DNA of 64,000 bases from Eledone cirrhosa (Eukaryota): the NCBI GenBank assembly GCA_964016885.1, contig OZ024746.1:20150001-20214000 (forward strand). The letters are read 5' to 3'. The notes below the pieces were generated by a model, which did no database searches, was not told the DNA's origin, and saw only the letters and a program-made list of their open reading frames with translations. Shown piece by piece: positions 52,284 to 53,222 of this stretch. Each line of letters opens with the position of its first letter. The stretch's first letter is position 1. Made by a program: the position numbers and the translations under genes.

Positions 52284-53041
52284 TATATATATATATATAT
52301 ATATATATATATATATATATGTATATTATTATTATTATTATTATTATTATACATATATACATATATATATACATATATACATATATATATATATACATAT
52401 ATATATAAATATATATATATACATATATATACATATATATGAACATATATATATGTATATATATATATGTATATATATATATGTATATATATATATATAT
52501 GTATATATATATATGTATATATATATATATATGTATATATATGTATATATATATATGTATATATATATATGTATATATATATGTATATATATATATATGT
52601 ATATATATATATGTATATATATATGTATATATATATATGTATATATATATGTATATTTATATATGTATATATATATGTATATATGTATATATATATGTAT
52701 ATGTATGTGTATATATATATATGTATATATATGTGTATATATATATATATGTATATATATATGTATATATATATATATGTATATAAATGTATATATATAT
52801 ATATATATATATATATATATGTATGTGTATATATATATAATATATATATATGTATGAATGTATACATATATGTGTGTGTATATATATGTATGTATATATA
52901 TGTATGTATGTATGTATATATATATATATATATATATATATATATATATATATATATATATATATATATATATATATATATATATGCGTGCGTGTGTGTG
53001 TGTGTGTGTGTGTGTGTGTGTGTGTGTGTGTGTGTGTGTGT
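52284..53041. repeat. (TA)n/(TATG)/(TG)n compound microsatellite
   Basis: Directly visible. Confidence 0.98.
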
Positions 53042-53181
53042 ATGAAATGTAGGGAAGTGACACACGAATTGATATATATAAACAAATAGTAAAAAGGAAA
53101 AATACAGTAGAACATGCTAGAGGGATCTTCTCAGTATAACATCAAAACATTTATTTATAAAGTAGGGATTTCCGCGTTTAA

Positions 53182-53222
53182 TCGTGTACCGGTTTCAGCA
53201 TTATATGCTTTTTCAACGACGG
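53182..53222 (-). ncRNA. Minimal type I hammerhead with U3-A8 core
   Basis: cgtcg TTGAAAA agcat-ata-atgct GAAA ccggT A cacg; stem I is short with one bulge. Confidence 0.65.

Follow-up and report, generated by a model that had tools for sequence, protein, structure and literature searches.

The closest described counterparts of the motifs reported here are the type I hammerheads carried by the Cercyon PLEs of Schistosoma mansoni (Cervera and De la Pena, 2014; PMC4209133). That paper reports U3-A8 in about 1,300 Schistosoma PLE motifs, and its supplement includes a PLE copy with UUGAAAAA, S. mansoni(4), which has the heptamer UUGAAAA; it also describes dimers formed through a palindromic helix III, the PLE hammerhead monomers being inactive and the dimers weakly active. 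A natural U3-A8 pair is further reported in PMC3088659 and is active in vitro, and in the one construct of PMC9901934 rescue at positions 3 and 8 is described just for a G:C swap, with low activity of the other double mutants. For the EN+ PLEs of the Neptune and Nematis type, a CX2-5CxxC linker is given as the distinguishing mark by Craig et al. (2021; PMC8557442), who call the role of PLE hammerheads unclear. Work on the Poseidon element PAc of Anolis (Frangieh et al., 2024; PMC11167929) attributes the PLE tail to two internal RT start sites and reports that cleavage requires protein; ribozyme mutants still insert normally, a dispensability of cleavage that is described for the in vitro system only.

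The DNA analysed here, a 64-kb stretch of the Eledone cirrhosa genome (the window), contains four motifs of this kind. We put a probability of about 0.85 on the reading that these are hammerheads of the published U3-A8 type, located in truncated pLTR ends of three PLE families (B, C and D), that the families with an intact core likely cleave weakly as dimers, probably with the aid of protein, and that in family D, which continued to spread, a C at position 13 likely abolishes cleavage. The features of the window on which this reading is built are as follows.

5467-5712, minus strand: 5'-truncated 3' pLTR of the young PLE family D, about 98% identical to its relatives, ending in (TA)n.
5625-5665, minus strand: family D hammerhead motif, with U3-A8 core at 5659-5653, 5-bp stem II, C13 at 5638 and a 3-bp A-U stem I.
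53041-53233, minus strand: 5'-truncated 3' pLTR of PLE family B, comprising hammerhead and tail and ending in (CA)n/(TA)n; the family is old, with matches 88-95% identical.
53182-53222, minus strand: family B type I hammerhead motif, with core U3-A9 at 53216-53210, stem II at 53209-53197, GAAA at 53196-53193, palindrome ACCGGU at 53193-53188, A17 at 53187, and the scissile bond predicted at 53187/53186 from standard hammerhead numbering.
53233-54402, minus strand: LINE-type reverse transcriptase fragment (PF00078, E 7.7e-20), an unrelated flank that borders the family B copy on its truncated 5' side.
55467-55638, plus strand: 5'-truncated pLTR of PLE family C, containing the next hammerhead and ending in (TA)n.
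55488-55529, plus strand: family C hammerhead, with 6-bp stem I, a weak stem II opening with U.U and the minority letter U4C.
59565-59702, minus strand: decayed pLTR of family C, containing the last hammerhead.
59614-59646, minus strand: decayed family C hammerhead that has lost stem II.

These motifs share with the Cercyon hammerheads (PMC4209133) their type I arrangement within pLTRs, the U3-A8 pair, the UUGAAAA heptamer and a palindromic helix III that implies dimers; also shared are the predominance of solitary truncated copies and the occurrence of opposite-strand pairs 100-700 bp apart. The differences lie in helix III, which is a 6-nt palindrome (ACCGGU) here and a 4-nt minimal one in Cercyon, in the short stem II (2-5 bp), which families A, C and D form without a preceding bulge, in a ratio of U3-A8 to C3-G8 that exceeds 100 to 1 among ACCGG motifs, and in the C13 of family D. 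The PLE hammerhead of Marsupenaeus japonicus (PMC4209133 supplement) resembles family B in its 6-nt palindromic helix III, its A10.1-U11.1 closing pair and A17, but differs in having a canonical C3-G8 pair, the palindrome AGCGCU and a perfect 5-bp stem I. The initial annotation had presented the motifs as a possibly undescribed family, which does not hold, since U3-A8, UUGAAAA and the palindromic helix III had all been published in PMC4209133 and a natural U3-A8 pair in PMC3088659. The variant is of a known kind, to which the present genome adds a further host and a very high number of copies; what is new is family D, in which C13 is fixed.

All four motifs were read back from the sequence where they had originally been placed (5625-5665, 53182-53222 and 59614-59646 on the minus strand, and 55488-55529 on the plus strand). 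The 53182 copy reads UUGAAAA AGCAUAUAAUGCU GAAA CCGG U at 53216-53188 (minus), with A17 at 53187. Its core had been singled out as the best preserved, and every core letter is indeed present; however, stem I in the active register amounts to 1 bp, a bulge and 3 bp, and it is outweighed by a slipped register in which U3 is paired. The 55488 copy has the core UCGAAAA (55494-55522, plus) and the stem I UAACUU/AAGUUA. The alternative letters initially written into the core, U(U/C)GAAAA, are unequal: U4 is the family state, found in 23 of 24 relatives, and the C4 of this copy recurs in 1/24 family C relatives. A 9-nt deletion has removed stem II from the 59614 copy (59640-59621, minus), where position 17 is U. 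In the 5625 copy (5659-5631, minus) GAAA is replaced by GCAA, which had been treated as part of a G(A/C)AA variation and proves to be the fixed state of family D. The type I core (N3 U4 G5 A6 N7 N8 A9 / G12 A13 A14 A15.1 / U16.1 H17, with positions 3 and 8 in a Watson-Crick pair) is present in the 53182 copy and in families A, B, C, E and K. Each copy ends in a microsatellite about 55-160 nt past position 17, in agreement with the 60-150 nt noted earlier.

The motif is far more frequent than expected by chance. Its pattern has four matches in the 64-kb window and none in 200 first-order Markov simulations, and UUGAAAA...GAAACCGGU has 17,864 exact matches in the species' own genome (3.0 Gb) against 14 for the reversed pattern; these counts, obtained with TTGAAAAN{8,20}GAAACCGGT (9,088+8,776 matches; reversed control 5+9), cover ACCGG motifs alone and include inverted pairs twice. 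Position 7 varies freely, with 3,413 further matches in which N7 is not A (control 38). Combined with the same palindrome, the canonical CUGANGA core has 113 matches, below its control of 160, with one small family visible among the matches listed. Mismatched states, U3.G8 (197 matches) and C3.A8 (239; controls 34 each), are about 1% as numerous as U3-A8; for the most part they differ by a single base from members of the big families, and small recurring sets occur as well. Six family A motifs with C3.A8, spaced by about 9.6 kb at G000:C1:348863669-348911674, represent the local tandem amplification of a mismatched copy.

Column counts over the best matches to the window copies, the window copy itself being excluded, give U3 in 28/29 and A8 in 28/29 natural copies of family B, and 24/24 for each of the two letters in both family C and family D. 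These counts establish U3-A8 as the family state and not as decay, and a C3/G8 consensus, which would have marked the individual copies as decayed, is absent from the three families checked (B, C and D). The proposal that U3-A8 is a compensatory pair is therefore borne out at family level, where a sister subfamily of B (L063, L064, L066 and L068), with homologous flanks of 73% identity, has the canonical core CUGAAGA and hence C3-G8, a double change at positions 3 and 8. The chance that the motifs are fortuitous matches, or that canonical CUGANGA cores drifted independently towards A and T, is negligible: the genome is AT-rich and CpG decay is visible in the CCGG of family copies, as such drift would have it, but the excess over the simulations and the reversed pattern, the near fixation of U3 and A8 within each family and the scarcity of C3-G8 motifs with the same palindrome all speak against it, and the family counts refute it.

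The three genome scans, for UUGAAAA, for another letter at position 7 and for any letter at position 13, sum to about 31,800 exact matches. The expectation that standard searches would miss the variant agrees with the results from Rfam, which returned no hammerhead at E<=10 for the two copies checked, the 53182 copy and one family A copy; for the whole window, no hammerhead stood among the matches listed (150 of 222), which were just microsatellite-driven miRNA noise. Other families, observed at L236, L238, L248, L232, L233 and L091, have canonical C3-G8 cores together with an ACUAGU palindrome and often lie in inverted pairs. Family F (L171-L188) combines a canonical CUGAUGA core with ACCGGU and pairs poorly in stems I and II in the standard register; a search for its parent ORF found none. 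The window itself has a canonical CUGAUGA core at 55870-55915 (minus), with a 6-bp stem II, GAAA and no clear register for helix III or stem I, which is possibly a decayed hammerhead of another element.

The four copies had been taken for a single family; they fall into three, namely B (53182), C (55488 and 59614) and D (5625). DNA searches yielded 1,505 first-look candidates for family B (40 scored, at 88-95% identity), 1,459 for family C, and 2,131 for family D at about 98% identity, and a fourth family, A, dominates the first 100 matches listed in the UUGAAAA genome scan. Variable 5' truncation is seen in all three window families, and the four motifs are 5'-truncated pLTR ends of PLE families B, C and D; the location at retroelement termini that had been suggested for them is supported, and the families link to PLE ORFs. 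The neighbouring LINE reverse transcriptase, a candidate for the element that carries the motif of the 53182 copy, was rejected: family B relatives start to match at 53233 and have their own, different sequence upstream, so the LINE is a flank, and its reading frame has no visible continuation beyond the microsatellite next to this copy. Elsewhere in the window, 9520-9774 (minus) matches the PLE endonuclease in tblastn with E of about 1e-6 to 1e-7 and represents a decayed GIY-YIG remnant.

Full elements were found for two of the families. Locus L152 holds a complete family A element, in which direct pLTRs 4,979 bp apart each carry the motif and enclose a frame with RVT_1 and GIY-YIG matches. 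In 17/30 family D loci found by the ORF1 N-terminus, a directly oriented motif precedes the ATG by 205-223 nt. Among 20 family D loci fetched and selected for an open ORF1 (L316-L335), 8 have the full 774-aa RT-EN ORF in the -1 frame behind the sequence U UUU UUA, and 6 (L323, L327, L329, L332, L333 and L334) combine intact ORFs with a motif in both pLTRs; the eight intact coding regions have a mean identity of 99.1%. The family D proteins are an ORF1 of 436 aa, which has no Pfam match, and an ORF2 of 774 aa, which contains YLDD, a CxxxxCxxC linker and YIGQT and whose RT and GIY-YIG Pfam matches are over the cut-off. The zinc-finger linker before GIY-YIG reads CDRPNCGIC in D and CGRSNCGTC in A, a mark by which these elements probably belong to the Neptune/Nematis type. 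Families B and C are linked to PLEs by fragments: a GIY-YIG ORF end, 65-73% identical to that of D, precedes the B motif by about 720 nt in L224, an inverted fragment of the GIY-YIG end adjoins a B pLTR in L050, and in L232 a family C pLTR leads into an ATG and the N-terminus of a PLE protein. Among 20 loci that were extended, none held a full-length element of family B or C.

Families A and D have the EN+ PLE architecture, with RT and C-terminal GIY-YIG between direct hammerhead-bearing pLTRs. The full element begins with a hammerhead-bearing pLTR, a 5' UTR of about 170-190 nt and ORF1, continues through U UUU UUA into the ORF for RT, zinc-finger linker and GIY-YIG in the -1 frame, and ends with a 3' UTR of 1-1.4 kb and a second pLTR with its hammerhead. 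The frame change between ORF1 and RT-EN occurs at U UUU UUA in both families (L323:1856-5451, plus; L316-L335; L152 near 7097, minus), and in D the site is in register in 20/20 loci, with an ORF1 of 435-436 aa. Frame and slippery site together make programmed -1 frameshifting likely in families A and D; no strong structure is predicted right behind the family D slip site. The published Neptune and Nematis elements (PMC8557442) share the RT, the CX2-5CxxC linker and the C-terminal GIY-YIG, as well as the (TA)n bias, the inverted truncated 5' copy, the optional tail and, according to a figure legend, an ORF1 separable by a frameshift. They differ from the present elements in the tail, which is about 35 nt in D and 70 nt in A, and in the pseudoknot behind the slip site, none being shown here.

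It is very improbable that the motifs instead mark one undescribed non-autonomous family resembling SINEs or retrozymes. The window copies are short and have no ORF, and a true tandem array like that of a non-LTR retrozyme exists elsewhere in the genome (L242:2851-4091, minus), where five canonical hammerheads with CUGAUGA and an ACGCGU palindrome recur at an exact 310-bp period. Against this, none of the four motifs is in a tandem array, and the window copies lack the tandem short noncoding repeats, each with a hammerhead, that define non-LTR retrozymes; they represent three families with variable 5' truncation and links to PLE ORFs, and for A and D the full-length elements refute the idea.

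Insertions of families A and D have the anatomy of PLEs, with an inverted truncated 5' copy, an optional tail and a microsatellite target. In 20/30 A loci and 11/24 D loci two motifs point away from each other within 1.5 kb; by the pattern used, such divergent pairs were found in just 1/29 B loci and 0/24 C loci. Each of the two families has two preferred 3' ends, measured from the predicted cleavage site: +80 (16/47) and +145/150 (25/47) in A, and +120 (9/35) and +155/160 (24/35) in D, with a TA repeat next to 38/47 ends in A and 31/35 in D. The paired ends match the PLE tail and are explicable by two RT starts, as described for PAc in PMC11167929. PAc likewise has both of its RT starts downstream of the hammerhead, and its insertion without ribozyme cleavage in vitro parallels what we propose for family D. 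It differs in that its canonical C3-G8 core overlaps the start codon and its start site has no target homology, whereas the two ends described here lie at TATA runs inside the element, adjacent to (TA)n, and the altered core is a natural state found throughout the genome.

We propose a model in which the GIY-YIG domain would nick a (TA)n target, and the RT, starting from one or the other of two internal sites downstream of the hammerhead, would copy across the scissile bond. Since every insertion spans that bond, we infer that the template would be uncut or religated there; early termination would leave short ends like the window copies. Members of the core-intact families would likely cleave weakly, as dimers paired via ACCGGU and probably helped by an element protein. 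The C13 that is fixed in family D would likely abolish cleavage and would not have stopped the spread.

In both stems, pairing is better between strands of one family than between strands of different families. Stem I pairing within as opposed to across 13 families is 35/52 against a mean of 21.9 (reached in 1/20,000 permutations), and stem II pairing is 34/39 against 23.6 (0/20,000); for the 7 U3 families alone, the observed stem I and stem II values are reached by 2 and 112 of 5,040 permutations. The families in this test are defined by pattern, with 42/175 stretches left out, and are treated as independent; as they are related, the significance is inflated. Individual stems are weak, stem I of B being bulged, stem II of C 2 bp and stem I of D 3 bp. 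The energy model makes the monomer hammerhead fold unfavourable in all four window copies (+2.7 to +6.3 kcal/mol), and the single-strand folding z-scores are weak (-0.35 to -1.59), so monomer stability lends no support to the fold. The same model is consistent with a PLE dimeric hammerhead, in which an unstable monomer is completed in the dimer through the palindromic helix III ACCGGU. The dimer fold of family A, at -21.1 kcal/mol, comes within 1.4 of the best cofold (-22.5), and those of the window copies range from -7.7 to -14.9. For B, C, D, E and K the best cofold is more stable than the dimeric hammerhead by 6-17 kcal/mol, in many cases through pairing of U3 with A17 or its slippage into stem I. 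Taken with the reports in PMC4209133, PMC3088659 and PMC9901934, these dimer energies make weak, dimer- and protein-dependent cleavage likely in the core-intact families.

An unlikely reading is that all U3-A8 motifs here are non-catalytic descendants of hammerheads, kept as an element for RNA dimerisation or protein binding near the RT starts, with D as the plainest end state. It would account for the folds that compete with the hammerhead by pairing U3 with A17 or by shifting stem I, for the weak stems of C, D, E and K and for the palindrome and stem II that D keeps despite C13; the low activity of double mutants other than G:C in the construct of PMC9901934 and the normal insertion of ribozyme mutants in PMC11167929 also fit. 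It does not explain why all other core letters are retained in A, B, C, E and K, where just position 7 drifts, or why C3-G8 and U3-A8 are exchanged between sister families, and it has to be set against the in vitro activity of U3-A8 in PMC3088659.

Family D departs from these in a single core letter. Its core reads G12-C13-A14 and lacks the A13 of the type I hammerhead, as in the 5625 copy, and GCAA is its family state. A genome scan for the family with any letter at position 13 gives 10,522 exact matches, with A13 in 34 of them; C13 is found in 97 of the first 100 matches listed, in all 17 direct upstream motifs and in 34/34 motifs listed for L316-L335, including both pLTRs of the six intact loci. 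An assembly artefact was considered and rejected, as no alternative letter is listed at this position with a 5% share in the contigs from runs X1, X4 and X6, although run X1 may be the source sample and hence not independent. In the window, C13 also generates a second palindrome, UGCGCA, beside ACCGGU (5636-5641, minus).

A13 belongs to the conserved hammerhead core (PMC3088659, PMC7092961), and PMC7092961 describes a contact of A13 with position 17 and the loss of cleavage upon nearly all core changes. No measurement of an A13C hammerhead was found in the literature searched (by term, in titles and the starts of abstracts), and the expected effect rests on the general statements about core mutations in those two papers, from which the fixed C13 likely stops self-cleavage in family D. 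The likeliest reading is that the family spread recently without cleavage, which fits the in vitro result in PMC11167929. With slightly better than even confidence, we regard family D as a natural ribozyme knockout, a young, intact and autonomous PLE family of about 10,000 motif copies with a dead C13 hammerhead in both pLTRs.

It is doubtful, though a serious alternative, that family D still cleaves, with C13 tolerated in the dimer or in the presence of protein, or with the strand cut in trans by a core-intact enzyme strand through ACCGGU. The family retains an intact palindrome and a 5-bp stem II, whose fourth pair has changed from G-C to U-A relative to A in a compensatory manner, and PLE hammerheads can be assisted by protein (PMC11167929). 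The place of A13 in the conserved core and its contact with position 17 weigh against cleavage, as does the presence of GAAA in every representative in the compared part of the PLE alignment of PMC4209133. Stem I of family D, moreover, has just 3 A-U pairs and is out-competed in the energy model by a hairpin over the core, and a 5' strand from A with a 3' strand from D forms about 2 pairs, which argues against cutting in trans.

If family D is a natural knockout, PLE transposition would need no self-cleavage in a genome, and the motif would survive as a scaffold for dimerisation or protein binding beside the two RT starts. The core-intact relative A, which makes up the bulk of the 17,864 matches, provides a built-in control for D; both are recently active and have full-length ORFs, so the need for the ribozyme is testable with natural sequences.

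Two other repeats were observed in the window: a satellite of about 10 kb at approximately 28650-38900, with a 27-bp unit made of 9-bp subunits, and a young dispersed repeat present as inverted 474-nt copies at 8625-9098 and 45942-46415, which are 98% complementary and 36.8 kb apart.
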